Assembly (NCBI GenBank): GCA_017309115.1
Contig: JAFLEF010000037.1
Location: 4,350-68,349, forward strand
Reading direction: 5' to 3'
Length of the DNA: 64,000 nucleotides
Source of the DNA: Verrucomicrobiota bacterium
Lineage (GTDB): Bacteria > Verrucomicrobiota > Verrucomicrobiia > Limisphaerales > UBA9464
The position numbers and the translations under genes are program-made. The notes under the pieces were generated by a model. It did not search any database. It saw nothing but the letters and a program-made list of their open reading frames with translations, and had not been told where the DNA came from. Shown piece after piece: positions 42,585 through 58,507 of this stretch (position 1 is its first letter; each line of letters begins with the position of its first letter).

Positions 42585-43370
42585 TCAGTGGGAATGCTCC
42601 ACGCCGTGAGCGTGGGCTCGGGCGTGCAGGATGTGGGCAATGATCTCATCCAGTCCCACGCCGTTCTTTACCTGCGCCATCACAAACGGTCCGTAGCCCC
42701 GCATCTTTTTCGCGTCGCGGGCCATCACCTCCAGATTGGCCCCCACCGCGGGTGCGAGATCGGTCTTGTTGATCACCAACAGATCCGACTGCGTCAGGCC
42801 CGGTCCCCCCTTGCGCGGGATCTTATCTCCGCCGGCCACGTCGATCACCTGGATCGTGAAGTCGGCCAATTCCCGACTGAAACACGCGGCCAAATTGTCG
42901 CCCCCCGATTCCAGCAACAGCAGTTCGGGAGCCACCGCCCGATGCAGATCCTCCAAGGCGAGCAGGTTGGCGGAGATGTCTTCGCGAATGGCCGCGTGGG
43001 GACAGCCACCGGTCTCGACCGCCCGGATCCGTTCCGCCGGGAGCGCCTCGTGTCGCAACAGGAATTCCCCGTCTTCCCGGGTGAAAATGTCGTTGGTCAC
43101 CGCGGCCAGGCTCAGACGATCCCGCAATCGCAAGCAAAGCTGAAGCATGAGCGCGGTCTTGCCACTGCCCACTGGTCCTCCGACCCCGACGGTAAAGGCA
43201 CGCTTCCGATAATCCCGCGCCAACGGCTGATCCCGATCCTGGAAGTGTCCCGGATGCTCCAGATGCTCGTGAGTATGTCCATGCGGCCCGTGGTCGTGGG
43301 AATGGCTGTGGCTGTGGCTGTGCGAATGCGAGTGTCCGTGGGAATGCTCGTGCGAATGTGGGGCGCCCAT
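42585..43370 (-). CDS. ureG: Urease accessory GTPase UreG with a His-rich N-terminal extension
   Basis: ATG at 43370 (the ORF extends to a TTG at 43406). [41 protein letters not shown] is followed by the P-loop [12 protein letters not shown] and the conserved [18 protein letters not shown] and ESGGDNL motifs. Confidence 0.95.
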
Positions 43371-43446
43371 CGCGGGAATAGTGAGCACAGTCCGTTCGAG
43401 TGGCAAATAGGCAGAGACCGCGAATGGCGAACATGAGTCCGGGCCG

Positions 43447-43878
43447 TCAGCTTCGGGAAGCTAAGTATCCCCGCCATCCGCCAAAGACCGTGATTTCGTG
43501 CTGACCTTCGCACAGCCACGGTTCGCCCAGAACGCCCAACACATCGGTTCCATCGCGCAGTCGAACCTTGCCGATGCTCAATCCCGGCGGTTCGGCCAGA
43601 AGCACTGACGCCAAGCCCGCGGGTGGAACGGCCCAGATCTCCAAGGCGACCGAGGAACCACCTTGGCGAAACCGCATCATCGCCGGATGCCGGTCCCCAA
43701 TGGTCCAGACCCGGTACTCGGGTGCCGTCGCATCCTCGCGCACAAACGTGGCTCCCACCCGCAACAGATTCGGATTGAGTTCCAAACCTCGCATCAGAGT
43801 CCCATTAACGGCCAACCACACAGGAGATGAATCCATAGAAATTCCAGAAGTGGGCCCGCCGATCTGCTCCCCCGACAC
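43447..43878 (-). CDS. Stand-alone homolog of the allophanate hydrolase C-terminal domain (gamma-glutamylcyclotransferase-like fold)
   Basis: [40 protein letters not shown]...[16 protein letters not shown]...[18 protein letters not shown]...[11 protein letters not shown] parallels the AH C-domain pattern as I remember it (VAVVGAH.SG.PLN..L...GA......T.P.YRLY.L...IE.EVW..P...FG.F...IG.V.L.DG....GF..E......DIT.FGGWRAYL). The start is GTG at 43878 or ATG at 43836. Confidence 0.6.
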
Positions 43879-43881
43879 GCC

Positions 43882-44298
43882 CTATTCTTCGAGAAACACC
43901 ACCGGCTTCTCGTAAATCGCCAAAACAATGCAACCCGCTTCGCTGATCACCCGGTGGGACGTTCCCGGCGGATTGATCATCAGGGTCCCCGCCGTGGCGA
44001 CGCTGTTCTGATCCCGCTGCGATCCCGCCAAGATCAGGATGTGCTCATAGCCGGCATGGGAGTGCAGCGGGATCCGTCCCGCCTTTTGGAAACGCAGCAG
44101 CGCCGCCGTCGGCCCGGTCCGACCATCGCCGTACAGCCGGTGAATCTGCACGCCCTCGCGAAAGGGTTGCCAGGGGATCTGATCCGCCCGCGCGGCCAGT
44201 TGGAACAACTCCGTCAGTTCGATCCGGGGATAAGTGGGGAGCGAGAGTGAGGTGTCAGACACGTTGGGACGAAAGCCTACCGGGCGGGTGCGCGACAT
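43882..44298 (-). CDS. Cupin domain protein (ChrR-like cupin)
   Basis: IPWQPFREGVQIHRLYGDGRTGPTAALLRFQKAGRIPLHSHAGYEHILILAGSQRD...PPGTSHRV is a two-motif cupin. I prefer the ATG at 44298, because the upstream part of ORF 43882..44508 is R/P/W-rich and overlaps the next gene. Confidence 0.6.
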   Translation of the reverse strand: MSRTRPVGFRPNVSDTSLSLPTYPRIELTELFQLAARADQIPWQPFREGVQIHRLYGDGRTGPTAALLRFQKAGRIPLHSHAGYEHILILAGSQRDQNSVATAGTLMINPPGTSHRVISEAGCIVLAIYEKPVVFLEE

Positions 44299-44449: not shown

Positions 44450-45133
44450 TTACTTCGAAATCGCCTGAATGAAGGCCGCGGAATCCGCGACCGCCCCGAA
44501 AACGCCACCCTGCATTTTGATCATTTTCAAGGCGGCGCGGTAATTGCCCACGTCCGTCGCCCCCGTGCAATCCGAGAGCATCAAGCACTCGTAGCCGCGG
44601 TCATTGGCCTCGCGCATGGTGGTATGGACACACACATCCGTGGTGATACCCGCTAAGGCAATGTTCTGGATCTGACGCCGTCGAAGCAGCATGTCCAGGT
44701 CAGTGGCGTAGAACGACCCCTTGCCCGGCTTGTCGATGACCGCTTCCCCGGGCAGGGGCGCCAGCTCAGGAATGATGTCCCAGCCGGGTTCGCCCCGAAT
44801 CAGAATCCGTCCGCACGGGCCGGCATCGCCAATTCCCGCCCCAATCCGCTGGCTGCGCCACCGCTTGTTCTCGGGCAGATCCGCCAAGTCCGGCCGATGT
44901 CCCTCCCGGGTGTGCATGATGTGAAATCCGGCCGCCCGGGCCGCCGCCAACACCTTCTTGATCGGCTCAATCGGAGCCCGGGTCAGGGACAGGTCGTAAC
45001 CCATCTTGTCCACGTACCCGCCGACCCCGCAAAAGTCGGTCTGCATGTCGATGACCAGCACGACGGTATTCTCGGGCCGCAAATCACCATTGTACGGCCA
45101 GGGATACGGATCAGCTGCCACGGTGCGCTTCAT
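44450..45133 (-). CDS. Isochorismatase-like (IHL) cysteine amidohydrolase, paralog A
   Basis: The Asp-Lys-Cys triad motifs are present: [31 protein letters not shown]. The insert [14 protein letters not shown] is shared with paralog B. ATGA overlap with the permease stop. Confidence 0.85.
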
Positions 45134-46743
45134 GCGGTCGCTCCTTGGGGTTCATGGTGGGACTCTTCGGCATGGACCACCGGCGCCGGCACGGTGGCAA
45201 ACTTGGCGCAGGCTGCGAACAGCACCGCCACCAACCCATAGCTTGCCGCCACCACCGGTGATTGCCCGATGCCAATGCGTTCTCCGTGCATGAATCCGAA
45301 ATAGGTCATCAGCGCTCCCGCCAGGGCAAAGCCCGCCGCCTTGTAGAATCTCCGGTCAATGATGCACACGGCGATCGCCCCGAGGATCAAGCCGCCCAAA
45401 ATTGATCCACCGCCGAGTACCTGCAGACCATGATACAGCACGCCTTCGTTGCGCATTTTGCCCTCGAGATCCGCCAGTTGTTGCGGACTCAAAGCCGGCA
45501 TGACCGTTCCCGCCGCCGCCAATGCGCCGTTGATCAACGTCACGGCCCAGTTGGCCAGATGCGGAACCAGCGAGAGGATGATCGCCGGCGCGTGGGACTT
45601 CGGAGTCTCCTGGAAGGCCTGCGAACCAATCAGCATCGCGATGTAGAGCAGGATCGGGAGAATCGCCACCGCCGGAATGACCGCCAACATCAGCGAGATC
45701 GTTCCAAACCAGCACAGCAGGATCACCAGGATTCCCGTCGCCGCCGAGTATCCGATTCGCCCGCCCATCGCCTTCCAACCCGGATGCCCAATGTACACGG
45801 CGTTGATGAACGGATTACCCATCATACATCCGATCAGGCTGACCACGCCGTCCGCGGTCAGCACCCGAACCGTCGGGAAGCTGTCCCCAGCTACCGCGGC
45901 GCTCTCCACGTTGTCGATGGCTTCCACCAGGTCATAGATGCCGAACGGGATGGCAGTCACGAGCAGGATTCCCAGGAACTCAAACCCGGAGAACACATGC
46001 CCGAACGCCGGCAACGGCACCCGGAACCCGAAGCTGGTGAAAGCATCCGTCACTCCCTTCAACGACATCCCGCCGAAGTTCAATCCCACGGCCGTCGAAC
46101 CCCAGGCAATCGCCGTGCCCACCGCAATGGCGATCAGACCCGCAGGCACTCCCCGATACCGCACGCCGCCAAACCAGCTCAGCAAGATGATCGCAAAGCA
46201 CACCAACCCGATCACCGGATTGAGGAACATCTCCAGCGCCGGTCGCATCGAGATGAAGGTAATGGAAACACCGGCCAGTGTGCCCAGCAGGGCGGCTCGC
46301 GGCGTGATCTTGCGAATCCACGGCGCCACAAACCCGCCAATCATCAACACAAAGCTTTGAATGAACACCCAAGTCAGTCCCGCCTCCCAACCCTTGATTG
46401 GATCACCCGTCTTGAGGGTGATGGGCAGCATGATCACGAAGGTGACCACGAACATGTGGGGCACGCTGATCCCAGAGGGCAGTGCGCAAATGTCCGAGCG
46501 GCCGGTCTTCAACGCCAATTTGTAGGCCAGCCAGGCGTAGTACATCGTGGACAGAAACAGCATCAGTCCAGTCGCGGGCAGGATTCGCCCAAAGACGAGG
46601 TCGTCCGGCATTTTCAGCACAAACCGGAGCAGCGCCGTCAGCGTGAGCAAATTGACCAGGATGTTTGTGCCGAAGCCGAAGAAGGCATTCCAGTCTCCGG
46701 GCACCCAAATCTTGGGTTTAGTGAGCGTGGCAGTGGTGTTCAT
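45130..46743 (-). CDS. Polytopic permease, NCS2/AzgA-like (xanthine/uracil permease superfamily)
   Basis: 537 aa with ~12-14 hydrophobic segments. The N-terminus [18 protein letters not shown] and the overall layout are reminiscent of AzgA-type purine-like permeases. The family call is from memory only. Confidence 0.55.
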
Positions 46744-46782
46744 GGAACTCAGATATCTGCAAGGGGTGGGGTTGGGGAAAAC

Positions 46783-47460
46783 TTACGAGAGGACAGAGAC
46801 CAGGCGGTCGGAATGGGTGACCCAGCCGAAGATGCCGCCCTGGGCTTTGATCATGTTCAGACCCATTTCCTGGAAATGGGGGAAGTAGGAACCCACACAA
46901 TCCTCAGGCACGAGGCAGTCATAGCCCCGGTCATTGGCCTCGCGGACGGTGGTGTTGACGCAGACCTCGGTCGTCACTCCGGTGACCACCAACTGGGTGA
47001 GTCCCTGATGCTGCAGAATCGACTGCAGATCCGTGGCGTAGAAAGCGCCCTTGCCCGGCTTGTCGATGATCGGTTCCGAAGGCAGCGGGTAAAGTTCGGG
47101 AATGATGTCATGCCCGACTTCTCCCCGAACGAGGATTCGACCCATCGGGCCGACATCCCCGATGCAGGTCGTACCCCGCCCGCGAATCTTCTTCGCCGGC
47201 GGTAGATCGGTGAGATCGGGCCGATGCCCTTCGCGGGTGTGAATCACCGTCAGGCCCGCCTTTCGCCAGGCGGCCAGAAGGCGGCGGTTGGGTTCAATGG
47301 TCCGACGCAACTGAGAGACGTCGTTCCCCAACATTTCCCCGAAACCGCCGGGCTCGAGAAAGTCCCGCTGCATATCTATAATCAGCAGCGCGCACTTCGC
47401 CGGAGTCCACTCGAAGGGATAAGGCTCCGCTTCGATCGGTATCGTGGGTGGGAGTTGCAT
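46783..47460 (-). CDS. Isochorismatase-like (IHL) cysteine amidohydrolase, paralog B
   Basis: Triad motifs [49 protein letters not shown] is also present. By eye, about half the positions are identical to paralog A. Confidence 0.85.
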   Translation of the reverse strand: MQLPPTIPIEAEPYPFEWTPAKCALLIIDMQRDFLEPGGFGEMLGNDVSQLRRTIEPNRRLLAAWRKAGLTVIHTREGHRPDLTDLPPAKKIRGRGTTCIGDVGPMGRILVRGEVGHDIIPELYPLPSEPIIDKPGKGAFYATDLQSILQHQGLTQLVVTGVTTEVCVNTTVREANDRGYDCLVPEDCVGSYFPHFQEMGLNMIKAQGGIFGWVTHSDRLVSVLS

Positions 47461-47474
47461 GGGTTGGCAGAGAA

Positions 47475-48482
47475 TCAGAAGAAGATACCAATACCTCCGT
47501 ACACCTGGGTGATGTCGGAGACCGCTTTGCCCGGGGCATTGAACTGCTGCATGCCCTGGAGATTTTCGTCGATGAAGTCCTGGAAGCGGAAGCCAACGTG
47601 GAAGTTCCAGTTGCCGTAGCCCGGCGCGATGAACTTCAACGGCACACTGCCCTTCACCCCCAGTTCGTAGAGGCCCACGGTCGAGCTCGGTCCGTAGTAC
47701 TCGCCGTAGAAGTTCGAGTCCGGCAGCAATACCCGCAGCGGCGCCTCCAGCCGAATCTGATACTTACTGAACGTGTATCCCGGGGTCACCCCGAGCTCAA
47801 AATAGAATCCTTCGCCCGGTCCCGGTTCGCCCAGAAACACATTGTACGGAACCCTCGCCGCCGTGGCCTTTTCGGAGAGTTCAGCCCAGAACATGAAATA
47901 GGGGCGCAGCGAGAACTGCTTCAGCCAGGGAGAATCATCCAACGTCAACTTCACCTCCAGATTCTGCGACGTCGGGATGTCCAGGATCTGCATGTTGAAG
48001 ACGCTGTAGGTCATGTCCAACTTCAGCTGCTTCATCAGCGTCAGCGAAACTCCGGCGATGGCATCAATTTCCACCCAATGGGTCTTGGGCTCGCTGCCGA
48101 AGGGCGCCTGCCGGGAGACGGGTTCCGTGGCGAAGTCGTTCCAGACTCCGCCCACCAACGTCACGTCATTCACGAAGGAGTCGGACTTGTAGACGTTCAC
48201 GAATCCCAAGAGCAATGGCTGAAAGGTCAAACCGTCGTCTTGGACGATCATGCCGCGGGGCGTCAGATACGCGTCGGCGAATTCAAAGTTCAACAGCATG
48301 TTGACCCGCGACGGTGACGGCGGCGGACTGGGATCCTGCCCTTCGTTGATTTGCGCGACGGCCGAGAGCCCGGGAGCGCTCAACAACGCCGCCGTTGCCA
48401 GCGAACGCCAGGGACGAGAAACACCGGAATAGCCAGACCGGTGGGAAACCGCAGATGTCTTCGAGGAAGCCAACATGTTCAC
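47475..48482 (-). CDS. Putative outer-membrane beta-barrel (porin-like) protein
   Basis: Signal peptide ...LATAALLSAPGLSAVAQ. Amphipathic beta-strand pattern rich in Y/F/G. The C-terminal GGIGIFF has an OMP-type terminal Phe. It is the first gene of the hydrolase/permease run. Confidence 0.55.
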   Translation of the reverse strand: MNMLASSKTSAVSHRSGYSGVSRPWRSLATAALLSAPGLSAVAQINEGQDPSPPPSPSRVNMLLNFEFADAYLTPRGMIVQDDGLTFQPLLLGFVNVYKSDSFVNDVTLVGGVWNDFATEPVSRQAPFGSEPKTHWVEIDAIAGVSLTLMKQLKLDMTYSVFNMQILDIPTSQNLEVKLTLDDSPWLKQFSLRPYFMFWAELSEKATAARVPYNVFLGEPGPGEGFYFELGVTPGYTFSKYQIRLEAPLRVLLPDSNFYGEYYGPSSTVGLYELGVKGSVPLKFIAPGYGNWNFHVGFRFQDFIDENLQGMQQFNAPGKAVSDITQVYGGIGIFF

Positions 48483-48532: not shown

Positions 48533-48549
48533 AAGCTCCCGCCATGCCA
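48533..48549 (-). promoter_or_regulatory. Candidate sigma-54 (-24/-12) promoter upstream of the beta-barrel gene
   Basis: The minus strand reads TGGCATGGCGGGAGCTT. The GG and GC dinucleotides have the canonical spacing of TGGCAC-N5-TTGC. It lies ~50-65 nt upstream of the start at 48482, next to a gene for a GAFTGA-containing activator. The -12 box is imperfect (GAGCT). Confidence 0.35.
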
Positions 48550-48674: not shown

Positions 48675-50189
48675 TCATGCGCTTCCTTCGCGTCCGGCCG
48701 CCGCCGGTTGCTCCTCCAACGCAAGTTTGCGGTAGATGCGCGTGCGATGAACCCCGAGCAGTCGGGCCGCATCCGCAATGTTGCCACCGGTCTCCTGCAA
48801 GGCGCGCTGAATTAAAAGATCCTCCGCGGCCGCCAGATTCAATGGCAGTTCCTCCACCGCCAGCGGACGGCTGCGAACCGGGGAGTCACTGACCCGTCGC
48901 CCTCCCGGCAAGCCCAGATGCGCCGCCTCAATCGATCCGCCGCCGCTCTCAATCAGCGCGCGCTCCATCACGTTCTTGAGCTCCCGTACATTCCCCGGAA
49001 AGGCATGCTGCGACAGCGCCCTCTCGGCTCCCGGCGTCAGCAGCGGCGGACGCAGCCCCATCTCCCGAGCGAACACTCCCAGGAAGTGTCGCGCGAGCAA
49101 CGGCACATCCTCCGACCGCTCCCGCAGGGCTGGCGTGTGCACCCGATATCGGGCCAGGCGGAAGAACAGATCCTGACGAAACGTTCCCGCCGCTACCCGG
49201 GCATCAAGATCGGCATTGGTCGCGGCGACAATGCGAACATCCACCTGCCGCGCGTGCGTGGCACCCACCGGAGTGATGCGTCCATCTTCCAACACACGGA
49301 GCAGCTTGACCTGAAGGCTCACCGGCATGTCGCCGATTTCGTCGAGAAACAGCGTCCCGCCATCCGCCAGTTCGAAATAACCTTTCCGATCCGTCAGCGC
49401 TCCGGTGAATGCCCCGCGGACATGCCCAAACAGTAGCGACTCCGCCAGTTCCCCAGGGATCGCTACGCAGTTCACCGGGATGAACGGACCCTGGGCGCGT
49501 TGACTGTCAAAGTGGATGGCCCGTGCGACGAGCTCCTTGCCCGTACCGCTTTCTCCGGTGATCAGGACGGAGGTTCGGGCAAACGCATGCAACCGCCGAA
49601 TCTCCTCCACGACCTTGCGAATATGCGGACTGGCTCCCACCAGTCCGGCGACGTTCCAGCGCTCGGCTTCCCGACCCGACATCACCGCGAGCTGTTCGTC
49701 CGCCCGTTCCAGCGCCAGTTCGGCCTGCTTCCGTCGCTGCATCTCCGCAGTGAGCTCGGCGGTGCGCGTTTCCAAGGCCTGATTCTTCTCCCGTAATTCC
49801 CGAGTCAACCGATTCAGCCGCAGATGGGTCGCCACCCGGCTCAGCACTTCGTCGGTCTGGAAGGGCTTCACCACGTAGTCCACACCCCCGGCGCGAAACC
49901 CATCCACCACGCTGGTCAGTTCGGTTCGCGCCGACAGAAAAATCACCGGAATCTCCCGCGTGGCTGGATCCGCCTTCAGCCGCCGACAGGTCTCCAAGCC
50001 GTCCACTTCTGGCATGAGGATGTCCAGCAGGATGAGCTCCGGGGCCGCCCGGTTCGCCACCTTGATTGCCGCCAAACCGCTGGACGCCGCCAGAATCTCG
50101 TACCCTTCAGGTTCCAGCGCCGCAGTCAGCAACGCCAGGTTCTGCGGCACATCATCCACCACCAGGATTTTTCCGGACGTAGGCGACAT
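48675..50189 (-). CDS. Sigma-54-dependent response regulator (NtrC family: REC + coiled-coil linker + AAA+ + Fis HTH)
   Basis: REC domain (KILVVDDVPQNL...DILMPEVDG). Walker A GESGTGKELVARAIH. GAFTGA loop (VRGAFTGAL). The C-terminal HTH is GNIADAARLLGVHRTRIYRKL. Confidence 0.9.
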   Translation of the reverse strand: MSPTSGKILVVDDVPQNLALLTAALEPEGYEILAASSGLAAIKVANRAAPELILLDILMPEVDGLETCRRLKADPATREIPVIFLSARTELTSVVDGFRAGGVDYVVKPFQTDEVLSRVATHLRLNRLTRELREKNQALETRTAELTAEMQRRKQAELALERADEQLAVMSGREAERWNVAGLVGASPHIRKVVEEIRRLHAFARTSVLITGESGTGKELVARAIHFDSQRAQGPFIPVNCVAIPGELAESLLFGHVRGAFTGALTDRKGYFELADGGTLFLDEIGDMPVSLQVKLLRVLEDGRITPVGATHARQVDVRIVAATNADLDARVAAGTFRQDLFFRLARYRVHTPALRERSEDVPLLARHFLGVFAREMGLRPPLLTPGAERALSQHAFPGNVRELKNVMERALIESGGGSIEAAHLGLPGGRRVSDSPVRSRPLAVEELPLNLAAAEDLLIQRALQETGGNIADAARLLGVHRTRIYRKLALEEQPAAAGREGSA

Positions 50190-50210: not shown

Positions 50211-52664
50211 CTAGGTTCCGGAGGGAGTTTCGACCGGCCGGGGTGTGACCGCTTCGGACAGCAAGCGAAGAATGGCGTCCATGTCGTAGCTGCGCATCCG
50301 ATGGCGGATCAACTCCGCCAACACCCGCGCCTCGGGCCCGTGATCACGGAGCTCCACCAAGGCAGCCTTAAGCGCCGTAGTGCTGTGCAATTCAGCGGCC
50401 ACCGTTAATCGTCCGAGCAGATCTTCGGGCAGGGTGATCCGGGGCAGCGGGGCCGACATTGCCGTCAGATGTTCCACCCCCGATTCGGCCAACTCAAACT
50501 CCACTCCCAACTGCCGCGACAAGCAGTCATAGAGCCGCTCGGCGCGAAACGGCTTCGCCAAAAAGTCGACGCAACCCGCGGCGCGGGCCTCCGCCTCGAA
50601 GGCGGGGAGTGCGGACGCGGTATGCGCCACGATCGCTAGCCGAGGGTGAGTCGCCCGCAGCTTCCGCGCGACTTCCAGACCACTGATCCCAGGCAACAGC
50701 AGATCCAAAAACACAATGTCCGGGACCTTCCGCCCGATTGCTTCCAGCGCCGATTCGCCATCGGCGGCCAATTCAACGTCGCAGCCAATCACGGTCAGCA
50801 GCCCGCCCAACACATCGCGATTTTCCCGGGCATCATCCACCACCAAGGCGCTCACCTTCGTTCCTGGTTTGAGCTGCTTCACATCCTGCCCCACCGCTGG
50901 AAAATCCGCCTGGCTGACCGGAAGAGGTACTTCAAAGTGGAATCGCGAGCCAATGCCCTCGGCGGACTGCAACTCGAGCTGACCTCCCAAGAGTTCCACC
51001 TGGCGGCGCGCAATGGCGAGTCCCAATCCCGTCCCTGCCTGATCCCGGGCTCCCCGGCCCTGATGGAACGGCTCAAAGATATCCCGCTGCTCCTCAGGGG
51101 GAATTCCCAGTCCGGTGTCGATCACCTCAAACCGCCAGCGATTCTCCCCCACGCGTCGCGCCTGGACGTACACCTCGCCGCGTCGAGTGAACTTCACGGC
51201 ATTGCCCAACAAATTGATCAGGACCTGACGCAGTTTCCCCTCGTCCCCGCGCACCGCCAAGGTCCCCTCCGGATGCACCTCCATCCGGAATCCGATGCGC
51301 TTCTGGGCGCACAACGGATGGAACGTCGCCGCCAGACTGCGCACTAAGGCGGTCAGATCGAAGTCGACCGGATTCAATTCCATCCGTCCGGCCTCAATCT
51401 TCGACAGATCCAAGATCTCATTGATCAACCCCAACAAGTGCTGGCCGCTGGAACTGATTCCGGCCAGGGCATCGTGTTGTTCCGGCGGCAACGATGGATC
51501 CCGACGCATCAACTGGGCGTACCCCAGGATCGCGTTCAACGGAGTGCGAATCTCGTGGCTCATGTTGGCCAGGAAGTCGGACTTCGCCTGATTGGCCGCC
51601 GCCGCTGCCGCCTCGGCCTCCTGCCGCACCCGGACTTCCTCCTGCAACGCCGCATTGGCCGCCGCGATGTCTTCGGTCCGACGCCAGTTGCCAATCAGGT
51701 AGGCCGTCAGCAGTCCGGAAAACGCCAGTCCCCCCAGCAGCACCCAGCGCGACTGCGTGCGAGTCTGCTTCGACGCAAAGGTGGGCGTCGGCGTGAACAC
51801 CAGCGTCCAGGGACGCCCGGCAAATTCCAGGGTCGTGCGCTGAACTCCATCGGCCGGGGTCAGGGCCAGAGTCGTGTCCCCGAACATCCATTCCCCGCTC
51901 GGTGACTCGTCGAACAACGCCGCCCGAATACCGCCCAAATGCAATTCCCGGAAAGCCGACTCCACCAGTGCGGCCACGCGGAAAACGGCGACGGCGAACC
52001 CGGCCAGTTCCCGTTCCCGATGAAACACCGGACGCAACACCAGCAACCCGGCCTCGCCCTCAGGACCTTGGGCCAACCGGACCGGAGCCGTCGCCACCGG
52101 CTGTCCGGAAGTCCGCGCCGCCTCGATGGATCCCCGACGCCGCGCATCCGATTCCAGATCGAACCCCAGAGCCAGCGCGTTTCGTTCCGGAGGTTCGATC
52201 AGATAGACGGGGACATACTCCGGACGGATTCCGGCGGGCACCAGTGCTCCTTCGGGTGAGTGTTCCCGGAACTCAAAGGACTCCACTCCTTCCGCCCGGG
52301 CAGCGACTTCAAAGGCAGCCCGCTGGGAGGCGGGGACCCAGGGATTCCATGAGAGCGCCTGGAGTTCCGGCTGACGTTCCAAGGCGGGCCGGACAAACGC
52401 GCGAAACTGGCGGCGACTGATTCCGCCTTCGACGTCGTGCAACGCGGCAATGGAATGCAGGACTTCGATCGACTGCAGCATGCTGACCTGCAGTTTCTCC
52501 ACCTGTTCCCGGGTGAAGTCGGCCGCACGCAGATTGAGTTCGCGTTGTTCCCACGACCGCAGGTTCTCGTAGAGCACTCCCGACAACGCGAGAGCCAACC
52601 CCACCACGCTGAAAATCCAGAATGGGGGCCACCGGCGGCGCTGCTGAAAGGTCCTGCGTGGCAA
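50211..52664 (-). CDS. Hybrid sensor histidine kinase with a periplasmic CHASE domain (CHASE-TM-HisKA-HATPase-REC + C-terminal helical tail)
   Basis: TTG start. An N-terminal TM helix is followed by CHASE-like blocks ([55 protein letters not shown]). The H-box is [17 protein letters not shown]. HATPase G-boxes are present ([14 protein letters not shown]). REC domain ([12 protein letters not shown]...DLLLPGISG). Confidence 0.9.
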
Positions 52665-53328: not shown

Positions 53329-53355
53329 TTTTTGCGACTGATCGGAGATCAAATC

Positions 53356-54141
53356 ATGCAAATCCTTTTTCCGAGCGATCCATTCCGAACGCGTCTTCCC
53401 GACGAAGCCTATGCCGAGGAGCACCAGGAATGGAGTGAGCGCGGACTTTCGACGGCGGTGTTTTCGTTTGAATCATTCCTAAATGGTTCCTTCCAGCCCC
53501 GGCCCGCCCTGGAGGCGGAAGTTCCGGTTCTTTACCGCGGCTGGATGCTCACGCCTGACCAGTACGCCCAATTGCACCAAGCCGTCGCCGCCGAAGGTGC
53601 CAGACTCAGAACCTCCCCGGAGGCATACGAACGATGCCATTACCTTCCCCGCTGGTATCCTCTCCTGGCCGAATTCACACCCGAAACCCGCTTCTTTGCG
53701 GAGACCGATCCGATCGTCAGCTCCTTGCGCGAGTCGGGCTGGGACTCCTGCTTTCTCAAGGATTACGTCAAATCGCTCGGCGCCACCGGCAGCATGGTCC
53801 GTGACTTGAATCAGATCCCGGAGGTCCTGACCCGGATGCGAAAGTATCGCGGAACCATTGAGGGGGGAGTCTGCGCGCGTCGATTGGAGTCATTTCTACC
53901 TGATTCGGAAGACCGCTACCTGGTGAGCGATGGAAGGGTCTACGGACGGAGTGGCCCCATTCCGGAAGTCGTCAGATTCGCCGCCGAGCGAATCGCGAGT
54001 CCCTTTTTCACGGTCGATACGACCCAGCGCGATGATGGAACCATTCGGATCATTGAACTCGGTGACGGCCAAGTCTCTGACCGCAAGCAATGGAGTGCGG
54101 GCGACTGGGTGTCGGCGCTTGCTGGCAAAGTTGCTCCATAG
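53356..54141 (+). CDS. ATP-grasp domain protein (DUF4343 / R2K-clade-like)
   Basis: The ATG at 53356 gives MQILFPSDPF...PDEAYAEE. The motifs LYRGWML...Y, CFLKDYVKSL and IIELGDGQVSD match my memory of the DUF4343 ATP-grasp family. It is the only plus-strand gene within the 42.6-64 kb block. Confidence 0.6.
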   Translation: MQILFPSDPFRTRLPDEAYAEEHQEWSERGLSTAVFSFESFLNGSFQPRPALEAEVPVLYRGWMLTPDQYAQLHQAVAAEGARLRTSPEAYERCHYLPRWYPLLAEFTPETRFFAETDPIVSSLRESGWDSCFLKDYVKSLGATGSMVRDLNQIPEVLTRMRKYRGTIEGGVCARRLESFLPDSEDRYLVSDGRVYGRSGPIPEVVRFAAERIASPFFTVDTTQRDDGTIRIIELGDGQVSDRKQWSAGDWVSALAGKVAP

Positions 54142-54350: not shown

Positions 54351-55028
54351 TTAGCTTTGGAAGAGGCGCATCGGCAGGCGGTCGTGCAGACCTTGCCAGA
54401 GATCCTGCAACGGGACCGTCTGCGCCACGTCGTCCAAGCCCAACTGACCGCAGCGAACCCGCACCGATTCTCCCAGCGGCGCCATCCGCCGCTGCCAGCC
54501 CTGCGCTTCGAGCGGACCAAGCCGATTCAACCGAACCGCCGCCGCCACCAGACCCCGCAGATGCCAGAACAGGAACAACCGTTGAACCGTCTCCAGAGGA
54601 AGACCGAGTTGGGCTGTCACCGCGCCGAAGACCGGTGCCAGGTGCCCCCGGAACTGCGGTTCGGAACTCAGGGGCGGGAGTTCGAAGATGCGCTCCGCCG
54701 CCAACAGGAGCGCCCGTCCCTGAAGTCGACTCGCTCGGTTAGCCACGTGATTGGAGGTAAACGCCTCGCAGAACTCGTCCCACTCCAGGATTCGCTCCGG
54801 GGCTTCATAAGCGACCCGAACTAAAGGCAACACCGCCCGACCCACCTGCTCCAGGCTGGTCCGAAAAAACCGTTCCAATCCTGCTCGATCCGACACTTCC
54901 CCGATTTGAACTGCCGCCTCGAGCCCCGCCGAATGCGCGAAGCCGCCCGATGGGAAGGCCGAGTCCACCCACTGCCATACCAACCACTCCAGTTCGGGGG
55001 CCATGCCGGTCATCAGGGCGTCAGCCAA
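54351..55028 (-). CDS. ureF: Urease accessory protein UreF
   Basis: LVWQWVDSAFPSGGFAHSAGLEAAVQ is the UreF signature. The ORF starts at a TTG at 55028, with an alternative ATG at 55013. Confidence 0.9.
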   Translation of the reverse strand: MADALMTGMAPELEWLVWQWVDSAFPSGGFAHSAGLEAAVQIGEVSDRAGLERFFRTSLEQVGRAVLPLVRVAYEAPERILEWDEFCEAFTSNHVANRASRLQGRALLLAAERIFELPPLSSEPQFRGHLAPVFGAVTAQLGLPLETVQRLFLFWHLRGLVAAAVRLNRLGPLEAQGWQRRMAPLGESVRVRCGQLGLDDVAQTVPLQDLWQGLHDRLPMRLFQS

Positions 55029-55052
55029 CGGAGAAGTTCATTCCCATCCGGA

Positions 55053-55082
55053 AATCTGTGAAAATCTGCGTTTAATCTGCGG
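55053..55082 (+). repeat. 30-bp three-decamer element (copy 2) in the ureC-ureF spacer
   Basis: aatctgtgaaaatctgcgtttaatctgcgg differs at one base from 30259..30288. Confidence 0.75.
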
Positions 55083-55107
55083 TTCCACCTTCCCCTACGC
55101 GGCGAGG

Positions 55108-56823
55108 TCAAAAGAGGAAGTATCGCTGGGCCAGCGGCAGTCTGGACGCCGGGTCGCAGACGAGGAGTTCGCCATCGGCACGAACCTCATACGTCTCCGG
55201 ATCCACCGTGATCTTCGGCGTCGCATCGTTCCACTTCAGATCCTTCTTCGAAACCGTTCGGCAGCCCCTCACGGCTTCCAACCGCTTGTTCAGTCCGTAC
55301 TGGGTCACGACCCCTTGTTCCAAGCTGAGCCCGCTGACGAACGCCACCGAACTGGCTCCCGTGGCCCGTCCAAAGCTGCCGAACATCGGTCGCATGAACA
55401 CCGGCTGCGGCGTCGGAATGCTGGCGTTGGGGTCACCCATCTGGGACCACGCAATGAACCCGCCCTTGATCACCATCTCCGGCTTGGCCCCAAAAAAGGC
55501 CGGCTTCCACAAGACGAGATCGGCCAGCTTTCCTTTTTCCACTGAACCCACCAGATGTCCCATGCCATGAGCCAGGGCCGGGTTGATGGTGTACTTGGAG
55601 ATGTATCGCTTGATCCGCAGATTATCGTTGGCACCGGATTCCCCCGGCAGACGTCCCCGCTGCTGCCGCATCTTATCGGCGGTCTGCCAGGTGCGGGTGA
55701 TCACTTCCCCAATGCGCCCCATCGCCTGACTGTCGCTGCTCATCATGCTGATCGCGCCCAAATCGTGCAGGATATCTTCCGCCGCAATGGTCTCGCCGCG
55801 AATCCGACTTTCGGCAAAGGCCACGTCCTCCGGCAACGTGGCATCCAAATGATGACACACCATCAGCATGTCCAGATGCTCATCCAGGGTGTTAACCGTG
55901 TACGGCCGCGTCGGATTGGTAGAACTGGGCAGGACATTCCGCTCCCCGCAGATCCGAATGATGTCCGGCGCGTGCCCACCGCCAGCACCTTCCGAGTGGT
56001 AGGTGTGAATGGTGCGACCTTTGAAGGCAGCGATGGTTCCCTCGACGAAGGTGGATTCGTTCAGCGTGTCGGTGTGGATGGTCACCTGAACGTCATGCTG
56101 ATCCGCCAGGGTCAGACAGCAATCAATGGCGGCCGGCGTCGTTCCCCAGTCCTCGTGCAACTTCAGTCCAGTGGCTCCAGCGCGAACCTGTTCGATCAAT
56201 CCAGCCGGCAACGCGGTGTTCCCCTTGCCGGTCAGACCAAAGTTCAGGGGCAGCGTATCCAACGCTTGAAGCATCAGGCGGAGGTTGTGGGAACCCGGCG
56301 TACAGGTGGTGGCACAGGTTCCGACGGCCGGACCGGTTCCGCCTCCCACCATGGTGGTCAAGCCGGAGGCAATTGCTTCATGGGCCTGCTGCGGACAAAT
56401 GAAATGAATGTGGGTGTCGAGTCCGCCGGCGGTGAGAATCAGTCCCTCGCCCGCGATGACCTCGGTGGTCACGCCCACAATTAGCCCCGGGGTGACCCCG
56501 GCCATGACATCCGGGTTGCCCGCTTTGCCAAGCCCCACAATCAAGCCGCCTTTGATCCCGACGTCGGCTTTGAAGATTCCCGTGTAATCCACCACCAAAG
56601 CGTTGGTGATCACCACATCCAAAGCATCGGCATCCCCAATGCCAGCGGCCTGGCCCATGCCTTCACGAATCACCTTTCCGCCGCCGAACTTGCATTCATC
56701 GCCATAGACGGTGTGGTCCTTCTCCACCTCCAGGATGAGGCTGGTGTCTCCCAACCGAAGTCGGTCCCCGGTGGTGGGACCAAACATCTCGGCGTAGTGC
56801 TGACGGTTCATTCGATGCGGCAT
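55108..56823 (-). CDS. ureC: Urease alpha subunit UreC
   Basis: The ATG at 56823 gives [29 protein letters not shown]. The motifs [32 protein letters not shown] and the C-terminal YFLF are all canonical. Confidence 0.97.
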
Positions 56824-56857
56824 GGCGGAATCTCCGGAAATGGTCAGGGTTGGGAAA

Positions 56858-57625
56858 TCAGGCGGACACGGATTCCTGGTGGGCAAACCCGCGTTGCTTC
56901 ACGGCCGCCAGGGCCTTTTGGCGACCTTCTTCGCTCACCGGGCCACTGGCCAAGGCGTTACCTCCCTGGATTACCCGGTTTCCGGCGATATCCACCAGGA
57001 CTACGGTTTTGGTTTCGCCGGGTTCAAAGCGGACTGCAGTGCCAGCCGGGATATTGAGGCGCTTGCCATAGGCGAGCGAGCGGTCGAAGCGCAGCGCCCC
57101 ATTGGTCTCGACAAAGTGATAGTGACTGCCCACCTGGATGGGTCGGTCTCCGAGGTTAGTGACCGCCAGTGACACTACCGACCGGCCTTCATTAAGAACG
57201 ATTTCGCCGTCCAAAATTTCCGCCGACCCAGGCTCGGGTTCATTCACAGGCGCCGGGAACAAATCAAGTGAAGGCACCGGGAGAAAACTGCCGTACAACG
57301 CCAGAGTCAGATCTCCGTGTTCGGCGGCGATCGGGTGATGCACTGTGACCAGTTTGGAGCCGTCGGGAAACGTCCCTTCCACTTGAACTTCGATGATCAT
57401 CTCCGGAACCCCGGGCAGCACCTGATTTCGCCCCAGAAACTTTCGACCCAGGCTCATCAACTCCGCCACCCGGCGTCCGTCGCGAATGAACTCAAGCAAT
57501 TGCGTGGAGATCAGGGCAACCGCTTCCGGATAGTTCAGCCGAACTCCACGGGCCAGGCGTTTCTGCGCCAGAAACCCGGCGTTGTGCAGAGCCAGTTTCT
57601 CAAGTTCGCGGGGAGTGAGATGCAT
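56858..57625 (-). CDS. ureAB: Fused urease gamma-beta subunit (UreA-UreB)
   Basis: The N-terminal half [39 protein letters not shown]... is UreA (gamma). A ~35-aa linker follows. The C-terminal half [36 protein letters not shown]...[16 protein letters not shown] is UreB (beta). Confidence 0.95.
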
Positions 57626-57667
57626 GGAAGAAAGGATCAGGGAGAACTTCGCAGGAAGGCAACTCTG

Positions 57668-58507
57668 TCACCACTTTCGAGCCAGCGGATCGTCGCCCAA
57701 AAACGCCGGCAAAAACGCGAGACACTCGGCAGTCTGACGGCGAACCGCCTCCACCGTGGTACCCGCCACTCGGATCAATAAGCCTCCGGCGAGTGGACTG
57801 GCACTCAGTCGGGTGGCTGCTCCACGGCCGGCGGGCCGAGTCTGAATCGTCTCACTTAGCGCCTGCACCGCCGTCGCCAGAGGAGGCCCCCACAGAACGA
57901 TCAACGTCATCGCCTGACAGGATCCCATGCGAACCCCGATAGGAATCTCCGGACCGTCTTGGAGGACCACGGAGTCCAGCCAGCGGCGGGATCCTTCGAC
58001 CCACAATTCCGTGCGCGTCCGGTATTCCTCGAACTGCCAGTGTTCGCCCCGTTCGGAGCGACCGGCGGTAAAACCATCCACCCACACCAATCCGGCGGAA
58101 GCGGCCATCCGGATCTCCTGCTGCTGCCGATACCGCGCACCAGCGAAGGCCTGTACCGGATCGGGAATCCAGGCGAGAAAAGAATCCTCCTTCAGAATGG
58201 CCCGGGTCCGTTGCAAGCAGGGAAGTCCGACGGGTGACCGGTAAACTTTGGTGGAAGACTGCGTGCCGAAGAAGGCCGAGGCGCCAGCGCCAATCGTGAG
58301 GTCGAGGTGATGTTCATCGCCGGACACCATGCCTCCGCCATAACTGCTCACATACGCCCAGACACTCCGACCCCGGGGACGCGGCGTGAGCAGTTTGAGC
58401 GGGCTCGTCGCGGACGCCTGAACGACTGCCGACGAACCGGAAACTTGCTGCACGTCCAGTTCCAATCGCCCGGCGGGATTCCGGGTTTCCCAAAGCATTC
58501 GGCTCAA
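57668..58507 (-). CDS. ureD: Urease accessory protein UreD/UreH
   Basis: The position between urtE and ureAB, the length of 279 aa, and blocks such as GGGMVSGDEHHLDLTIGAGA and TQSSTKVYR are typical of UreD. The start is a TTG at 58507 (overlaps the urtE stop) or an ATG at 58498. Confidence 0.85.
   Translation of the reverse strand: MSRMLWETRNPAGRLELDVQQVSGSSAVVQASATSPLKLLTPRPRGRSVWAYVSSYGGGMVSGDEHHLDLTIGAGASAFFGTQSSTKVYRSPVGLPCLQRTRAILKEDSFLAWIPDPVQAFAGARYRQQQEIRMAASAGLVWVDGFTAGRSERGEHWQFEEYRTRTELWVEGSRRWLDSVVLQDGPEIPIGVRMGSCQAMTLIVLWGPPLATAVQALSETIQTRPAGRGAATRLSASPLAGGLLIRVAGTTVEAVRRQTAECLAFLPAFLGDDPLARKW

Follow-up and report, generated by a model that had tools for sequence, protein, structure and literature searches.

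What might a bacterium gain from keeping two diverged hydrolases on either side of a single permease gene? The question is raised by a locus in a 64,000-nucleotide stretch of a Verrucomicrobiota genome, probably from the order Limisphaerales (assembly GCA_017309115.1, contig JAFLEF010000037.1, positions 4,350 to 68,349 of the forward strand), called the window below; the genome measures 7.5 Mb and is 95% complete. An original prediction, made from the bare sequence, described two paralogous Asp-Lys-Cys hydrolases (here A and B) that bracket one permease, with the permease gene overlapping that of hydrolase A by ATGA. This description is borne out. The motifs that it quoted all occur in the translations of three intact open reading frames (ORFs), among them IDMQTDF in hydrolase A and IDMQRDF, IDKPGKGAFY and VTTEVCVNTT in hydrolase B, and the overlap between the start of hydrolase A and the stop of the permease reads gcATGAag. 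An alignment of the two hydrolases covers 222 residues at 51% identity (E = 4e-79), well past what chance would give; each has a Pfam Isochorismatase match near 1e-44 (4e-44 for B) and keeps the triad. From sequence comparison, the locus is read as a triuret/biuret nitrogen-scavenging operon, with a probability of roughly 0.7; in full, this reading includes import of the substrate and an ending through urea. The pairing of TrtA-type and BiuH-type hydrolases and the pathway that they form are already known, and it is the permease and the accessory genes that are new. Biuret is a urea-condensation compound closely related to triuret. Triuret itself is an impurity of urea fertiliser, and an estimated 300 million pounds of it are spread on farmland each year (PMC7948467).

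The two hydrolases and their pockets

Hydrolase A scores 419.4 bits on the NCBIfam equivalog model of BiuH (NF050097), over model positions 1–221 of 221 and against a cut-off of 370, and its best match in the PDB is BiuH from Rhizobium leguminosarum (6AZO, 411 bits, 76.5% identity). On the same model hydrolase B reaches 273.9 bits, which is under the cut-off, so that it is not filed as BiuH. Its best PDB match is TrtA from Herbaspirillum sp. BH-1 (6XIX, 272.6 bits, 58% identity); two further TrtA structures are close to it (6XJ4 and 6XJE, ~273 bits), and the scores of the BiuH structures 6XJM (253.6 bits) and 6AZO (239 bits) are lower. The first-shell residues are common to TrtA and BiuH, and the consensus of the two differs at F35/Y, N41/Y, A134/S, E160/D, Y187/T and I205 (PMC7948467). 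At these six positions hydrolase B is TrtA-type throughout (F35, N41, A134, E160, Y187, I205). It also carries the triad D24, K129 and C162 together with the ligand residues E72, K132 and Q202, and is identical to 6XIX at all 13 positions compared. Hydrolase A is BiuH-type at six of six (Y35, Y41, S134, D160, T187, V205), keeps the Asp-Lys-Cys triad with E72, K132 and Q202, and contains all of the BiuH substrate-binding residues D36, F41, K142, K145 and Q215. A comparison was extended to related loci, a sample of 80 with permeases 71–90% identical, drawn from Verrucomicrobiota, Acidobacteriota, Planctomycetota, Myxococcota and Alpha-, Beta- and Gammaproteobacteria. Among the B-like genes from these loci, 66 of 67 follow the six-position split, as do all 43 A-like genes. 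In a maximum-likelihood tree the TrtA and BiuH clades stand apart with 100/100 support, each covers several phyla, and hydrolase B falls in the TrtA clade.

By these sequence criteria, hydrolase A is assigned as a biuret hydrolase (BiuH) and hydrolase B as a TrtA-type triuret hydrolase, and the two are paralogues that diverged long ago and differ in their pockets. The original prediction had named identical pockets as the mark of a simple recent duplication; the comparison with BiuH and TrtA residues that it called for shows the pair to differ at all six discriminating positions. A recent duplication is ruled out by the 51% identity, by orthology to different characterised enzymes and by the multi-phylum clades. 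One detail of the prediction does not survive, namely that the hydrolases share an unusual insert. The motif in question runs across the whole BiuH/TrtA clade, including the crystallised Rhizobium BiuH, and appears slightly altered in Herbaspirillum TrtA as HTRESHLPDLSDCP. This motif holds the substrate-binding Glu72 of TrtA (PMC7948467).

The first of the two options in the original prediction, a succession of deamidations that takes triuret by way of biuret to allophanate, agrees with the curated cut-off, the residues and the tree, and the route is already published (PMC7948467). There, TrtA converts triuret to carboxybiuret and NH3, carboxybiuret gives biuret and CO2 either spontaneously (half-life about 20 min) or by the action of TrtB, and BiuH converts biuret to allophanate and NH3 (PMC7948467). 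Clustering of trtA with biuH was reported in the same work (Tassoulas, Elias and Wackett 2020, PMC7948467). Here, biuH lies 1.65 kb downstream of trtA in the same operon, and the two genes are clustered in 46 of the 80 related loci.

A permease linked to trtA

No sequence match to the permease was obtained in Pfam (E ≤ 10), in NCBIfam or, by phmmer, in the PDB (E ≤ 10). The Pfam model Xan_ur_permease (PF00860) has a weak match in just three of 49 relatives (best 5e-7) and none in this permease. An AlphaFold (AF2) model built from 49 sequences (pLDDT 92.5, pTM 0.88) predicts 14 helices arranged as a 7+7 inverted repeat, with short strands before transmembrane helices TM3 (residues 90–92) and TM10 (residues 314–316). 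The top 50 Foldseek matches to this model all have the 7+7 fold at a probability of 1.00 and include SLC26Dg, UraA, SVCT1, prestin, BicA, AZG1 and UapA, at TM-scores of 0.45–0.54 and 11–17% identity. AZG1 ranks 14th (TMq 0.46), after SLC26Dg, UraA and SVCT1. The permease is a member of no defined family, and in its model AzgA does not seem to stand closer to it than UraA or SLC26 do. The label "NCS2/AzgA-like" given by the original prediction can thus be retained for the fold, on the strength of AF2 and Foldseek, and not for the family, for which there is no sequence match. An exhaustive HMMER search for the family gathered 3003 cluster representatives (50% identity clusters, E ≤ 1e-3), and the permease is single-copy in the host genome. 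An acidic TM8 motif (NVESA..AGD) and a TM10 motif (YIGHPGWK) are conserved family-wide. In contrast, His96 of TM3 (SVPHMF) is restricted to the branch that is linked to isochorismatase-like hydrolase (IHL) genes.

The evidence for what this permease might carry comes from its neighbours. In 63 of the 80 related loci, the gene immediately upstream of the permease, on its strand, is TrtA-type, and in another 4 such a gene comes immediately after it; of the remainder, 3 leave no space upstream and 10 lack a neighbouring trtA. The exact order trtA-permease-biuH is found in 21 of the 80, with 2 further truncated cases, and the bracket recurs around a permease with just 47% identity, where the flanking genes are once more TrtA-type on the upstream side and BiuH-type on the downstream side. 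A second sample was picked by TrtA and not by the permease. In this sample the permease adjoins trtA in 12 of the 20 genomes with this TrtA type (at least 62% identity) and in none of the 13 genomes in which the closest IHL is 54–58% identical, a group taken, by sequence, as the Herbaspirillum/Rhizobium type. All 12 permeases that are at least 50% identical adjoin trtA. The genes that follow the pair vary (biuH and cupin; atzF; atzF-atzG-atzE-hpxZ), and the pair itself is constant. Because of this constant linkage to trtA, the permease is inferred to be an inner-membrane importer for the TrtA substrate, triuret, and possibly for biuret too. No triuret or biuret transporter was described in the literature searched. 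By gene linkage, the family, with its ~3000 clusters and no Pfam model, is a strong candidate carrier. Cultured organisms with an orthologue of the permease include Brevifollis gellanilyticus NBRC 108608 (L046), Viridibacterium curvum JCM 18715 (L050), Verrucomicrobium sp. BvORR034 and BvORR106, Terrarubrum flagellatum 7MK25 and Microvirga ossetica V5/3m.

One alternative concerns the substrate. The permease might import biuret, or biuret together with triuret, or the clade of hydrolase B might act on another natural acyl-urea such as formylurea, an oxalurate-like compound or carboxybiuret. Consistent with such a substrate, the ATGA overlap couples translation of the permease to that of biuH here, and loci of the L004 type have a Bmp-type ABC transporter around biuH in addition to the permease, so that the substrates could be split either way. 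An IHL subtype with E160H and Y187F also stands beside permease relatives of 40–44% identity and AllFGH genes. This alternative is nonetheless considered quite unlikely, since the permease follows trtA in 19 loci without a biuH nearby, and does so also where the route is AtzEGH/AtzF without BiuH, and since hydrolase B retains every TrtA specificity residue.

In a second alternative, the permease would be an ordinary nucleobase or urate carrier: a purine or urate would be taken up and oxidised intracellularly to yield triuret, and the hydrolases would serve only to remove this by-product. The fold is common to UraA, UapA and AZG1, relatives carry the JGI name "AGZA family xanthine/uracil permease" (an automatic annotation only), and relatives of 33–37% identity adjoin adenine deaminase and xanthine dehydrogenase genes; triuret is moreover a known product of urate oxidation (PMC7948467). 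Around the permeases of the 80 loci, however, genes for uricase, xanthine dehydrogenase and deaminase are not among the recurring neighbours, and it is trtA that recurs there constantly. TM3 (His96) sets the IHL-linked branch apart from the purine-linked one, and the sigma-54 and NtrC-type control described below speaks for a nitrogen source taken up from outside. An ordinary nucleobase carrier is therefore held to be very unlikely. From the gradient among its more distant relatives, the permease family seems to have a purine-related base, from which one branch was recruited to ureide amidohydrolases. The idea of a nucleobase-type fold that carries a non-purine ureide, which the original prediction had raised as a novelty, has support from the predicted fold, the trtA linkage and the distant relatives beside adenine deaminase.

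Several observations on more distant relatives are also recorded. A third IHL subtype (L086, 6568–7242; L092, 6186–6857) has the TrtA-like residues F35, N41, A134 and I205 along with the E160H and Y187F changes; it adjoins the 40–44% permease relatives, and in L086, the 44% case, a PucR regulator and AllH/AllF/AllG are present as well. From its residues, this subtype may act on a different acyl-ureide. On an Escherichia coli IncF plasmid (L097, NZ_CP031107.1, 4980–6530), a 38% relative lies in a DUF2877(AllH)-FdrA(AllF)-DUF1116(AllG)-permease-carbamate kinase cassette, and plasmids of E. coli (~65) and Klebsiella (6) carry this relative. On a plasmid of Terrarubrum flagellatum (L096, NZ_CP091852.1, 6001–7602), the order is IHL hydrolase, "regulator", atzF, DUF4089 (AtzG), AtzE and hpxZ, which would route the TrtA product into AtzEGH and bypass BiuH. 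The "regulator" of this locus is an example of a RefSeq/PGAP mis-annotation of permease family members.

The end of the pathway and the surrounding genes

No AtzF above cut-off was found in the host genome; proteins with an amidase signature are limited there to GatA and a generic amidase of 536 aa on another contig. A search for AtzH/TrtB (PF11533) that detected the family in a control genome gave no match in the host; AtzE and AtzH are absent, and cyanuric acid hydrolase (AtzD) was not found in the host genome by a search without a positive control. The operon does encode a short protein with the only AH_C domain in the genome (Pfam AH_C, 1.4e-37). On the AtzF model TIGR02713 it scores ~91–93 bits, at positions 436–563 only and against a cut-off of 511. 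Its alignment with AtzF is confined to the final ~130 residues, it has no amidase-signature domain, and it is thus not AtzF. Its closest solved structure is 5C5Z, a stand-alone chain of 137 aa deposited as "Glutamyl-tRNA amidotransferase" (160 bits), whereas the solved C-domains of allophanate hydrolases match far less well (38–60 bits). An identity of 5C5Z with the E. coli protein c4763 found no confirmation in the literature and is not relied on. A literature search on the function of the AH_C domain returned nothing of use. The AH_C homologue inside AtzF was reportedly proposed by Fan et al. 2013 to act on N-carboxycarbamate. TrtB, for its part, is said to have been defined by Aukema et al. 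2020. An identification of the AH_C protein as TrtB was rejected, as TrtB groups with AtzH and HpxZ (NTF2-like, PF11533; supplement of PMC12625717).

The distribution of AH_C is the mirror image of that of AtzF. All 16 genomes with a cupin-adjacent AH_C gene (the host and 15 relatives) lack AtzF above cut-off, whereas 23 of the 24 trtA-permease genomes without this AH_C have AtzF above cut-off, in some cases as split N- and C-domain ORFs (AH_C loci L001–L005, L009–L012, L020, L025, L027, L029, L030 and L033, compared with L013–L075). This either-or pattern of gene content suggests a possible second ending of the pathway, by way of urea and urease. If so, the scoring of triuret and biuret potential in metagenomes would change, as atzF is currently required there. 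As a separate observation, AtzF appears to be split in genomes G316–G320 and G329 (L013, L014, L016, L024, L028 and L017, respectively) into an amidase ORF (567–583 bits, model positions 2–420) and an AH_C ORF (172–183 bits), which are adjacent or a few kb apart.

The cupin encoded between biuH and the AH_C gene matches Pfam Cupin_7 (2.5e-19), with ChrR cupin domains as its PDB matches. Its start is probably the ATG at 44298, given that conservation begins near residue 70–93 of the longer ORF. A cupin adjoins biuH in ~40 related loci, nearly always on its downstream side, with AtzF present or absent. As a substitute for AtzF the cupin was ruled out, as it co-occurs with full-length AtzF (L018, L022, L032, L044, L046). 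No paper tying a cupin to biuret hydrolase was found in the literature searched.

The urease genes surround the module. On the minus strand, the order is urtABCDE, ureD, ureAB, ureC, ureF, kinase, NtrC-type activator, barrel, trtA, permease, biuH, Cupin_7, AH_C and ureG, so that the triuret module is inserted between ureF and ureG. The ureG gene begins 40 nt past AH_C and follows AH_C also in loci L012, L027, L029 and L033. The urease block was identified from its alpha (1011 bits) and gamma/beta (333 bits) subunits by NCBIfam and from UreF and UreD by Pfam; further upstream lie the urt genes, with UrtB to UrtE identified by NCBIfam and UrtA also identified. Across genomes, ureC is present in 14 of the 15 relatives with this AH_C and lies within ~11 kb in only 6 of the 16 AH_C genomes.

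In the proposed route, triuret and biuret would enter through the barrel across the outer membrane, and the permease would bring the TrtA substrate across the inner membrane. TrtA would take one ammonia from triuret to give carboxybiuret, which would lose CO2 to form biuret, and BiuH would take a second ammonia from biuret to leave allophanate. Decarboxylation of allophanate to urea is proposed because the genome is without AtzF, TrtB and AtzE/AtzH; this step, the weaker part of the scheme, may be spontaneous or helped by AH_C, the cupin or both. The urease encoded around the module would finish the urea. A broader claim is put forward tentatively, at less than even odds: that the permease founds a family of linear acyl-ureide importers, of purine-type 7+7 origin and marked by the TM3 His, and that AtzF has been replaced by AH_C, perhaps with the cupin, making urea in a urease-dependent variant of the pathway that would be built into the urease operon.

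The pathway might also end without urea, through an unrecognised allophanate hydrolase formed by the cupin and AH_C or represented by a generic amidase, with the placement of urease reflecting a shared nitrogen regulon. In clusters without AtzF, the cupin and AH_C genes are found downstream of the permease where atzF stands in L023, L037 and L061, the 536-aa amidase-signature protein is at hand on its other contig, and the small fraction of genomes with a nearby ureC would be accounted for. This ending is judged somewhat unlikely, given the co-occurrence of the cupin with full-length AtzF in many genomes, the lack of an amidase fold in AH_C and the urease found in nearly all of the AH_C genomes (14/15).

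A number of points weigh against the reading of the locus as a triuret/biuret operon with import and a urea ending. The identity of hydrolase B is only 58% to the TrtA that was assayed and 54% to BiuH, and this assayed enzyme (6XIX) has a long branch in the tree. In characterised triuret clusters an ABC transporter is found instead of such a permease, 8 of the 20 genomes with this TrtA type have no permease of this kind beside trtA, and the compound that the permease imports could be biuret or a different acyl-ureide rather than triuret. At the end of the pathway, the generic amidase (L082) could hydrolyse allophanate. The Fisher exact test for exclusion between AH_C and AtzF (p = 2.7e-10, 40 genomes) ignores shared ancestry and the incompleteness of metagenome-assembled genomes. 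The role of the C-domain in full-length AtzF is reportedly debated between Fan et al. 2013 and Lin and St Maurice 2013. Finally, the case for the urea route is made of absences and gene neighbourhood, in a genome that is 95% complete.

Upstream of trtA, the barrel has no Pfam or NCBIfam match. Its AF2 model (pLDDT 77.7) predicts an all-beta barrel from residue 60, and Foldseek gives loose matches to OmpG, a KdgM-type porin and PcoB (TM-score ≤ 0.45); homologues that are 29–73% identical lie upstream of trtA in ~23 related loci. In the promoter candidate TGGCATGGCGGGAGCT, the spacing of GG and GC agrees with TGGCAC-N5-TTGC. Of 71 related loci, 10 have a sigma-54-like motif ahead of the first gene, compared with 1.3% of background windows, and an NtrC-type regulator is kept upstream in L001, L012, L027, L029 and L033. 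From these sequence features, the operon is probably sigma-54-driven. Scans of the operon for terminators and sigma-70 promoters gave nothing beyond shuffled expectation. The CHASE kinase is conserved beside the module in the closest relatives. CHASE domains are known above all as binding sites of cytokinins, a group of adenine derivatives, and the kinase could sense the pathway substrate. Two further features of the region are the R2K_3 ATP-grasp gene, the sole plus-strand gene between ureF and the kinase, which breaks the otherwise all-minus block, and the long, His-rich N-terminus of UreG, whose gene is separated from ureF by ~11 kb that hold the triuret module. The positions of all features in the window are collected in Table 1.

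Table 1. Features of the probable triuret/biuret locus and its surroundings, with positions in the window
Feature	Position	Strand	Remarks
Hydrolase B (TrtA-type)	46783–47460	−	225 aa; ORF intact
Permease	45130–46743	−	537 aa; ORF intact
Hydrolase A (BiuH-type)	44450–45133	−	227 aa; ORF intact
Outer-membrane beta-barrel, family-less	47475–48482	−	first gene of operon; possible entry channel
ChrR-type cupin (Cupin_7), small	43882–44298	−	after biuH
Stand-alone AH_C domain	43447–43878	−	143 aa; amidase domain lacking
UreG urease accessory GTPase	42585–43406	−	last gene of run; TIGR00101 271.7 bits vs cut-off 204
Sigma-54-type promoter candidate	48534–48549	−	TGGCATGGCGGGAGCT; 52 nt upstream of barrel start
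NtrC-type sigma-54-dependent response regulator	48675–50189	−	NCBIfam NtrC and AtoC, ~1e-112
Hybrid sensor kinase, periplasmic CHASE	50211–52664	−	Pfam CHASE 9e-45, HisKA, HATPase_c, Response_reg
ATP-grasp gene (Pfam R2K_3)	53332–54141	+	
ureD, fused ureAB, ureC, ureF	54351–58507	−	upstream of module

Comparison with known systems

The closest characterised counterparts are the triuret/biuret clusters of Herbaspirillum sp., which likewise co-locate TrtA- and BiuH-type hydrolases that are ~50% identical to each other and share with the host pair the triad, the substrate-binding residues and the six discriminating positions. In contrast to those clusters, the host cluster is without trtB, atzF and a GntR regulator, and has a single 7+7 permease where the ABC cassette stands there. 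It adds the barrel, the cupin, the stand-alone AH_C protein and the CHASE kinase with the sigma-54 regulator, and the module is placed between ureF and ureG. In ammonia oxidisers and comammox Nitrospira, trtA and biuH are also co-located, sometimes with a urease cassette near them, but those clusters carry atzF and a bmpA-nupABC ABC transporter (PMC12625717); a 7+7 permease, a cupin and a stand-alone AH_C are unreported for them (PMC12625717). The AH_C protein aligns to the C-terminal part of AtzF, as in the C-domain of AtzF and DUR1,2 (4GYR, 4ISS), and differs in scoring ~91 bits where the C-domain ORFs of split AtzF elsewhere score 172–183. The permease resembles the NCS2/AzgA and SLC26/SulP carriers (UraA, 3QE7/5XLS; UapA, 5I6C; AZG1, 8IRL; SLC26Dg, 5DA0) in its predicted 7+7 fold, its strands at TM3 and TM10 and its acidic TM8. 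Unlike these carriers, with which it shares 11–17% identity, it lies beside ureide amidohydrolases and not beside genes of nucleobase salvage. Set against these systems, the locus extends the known pathway and does not overturn it.

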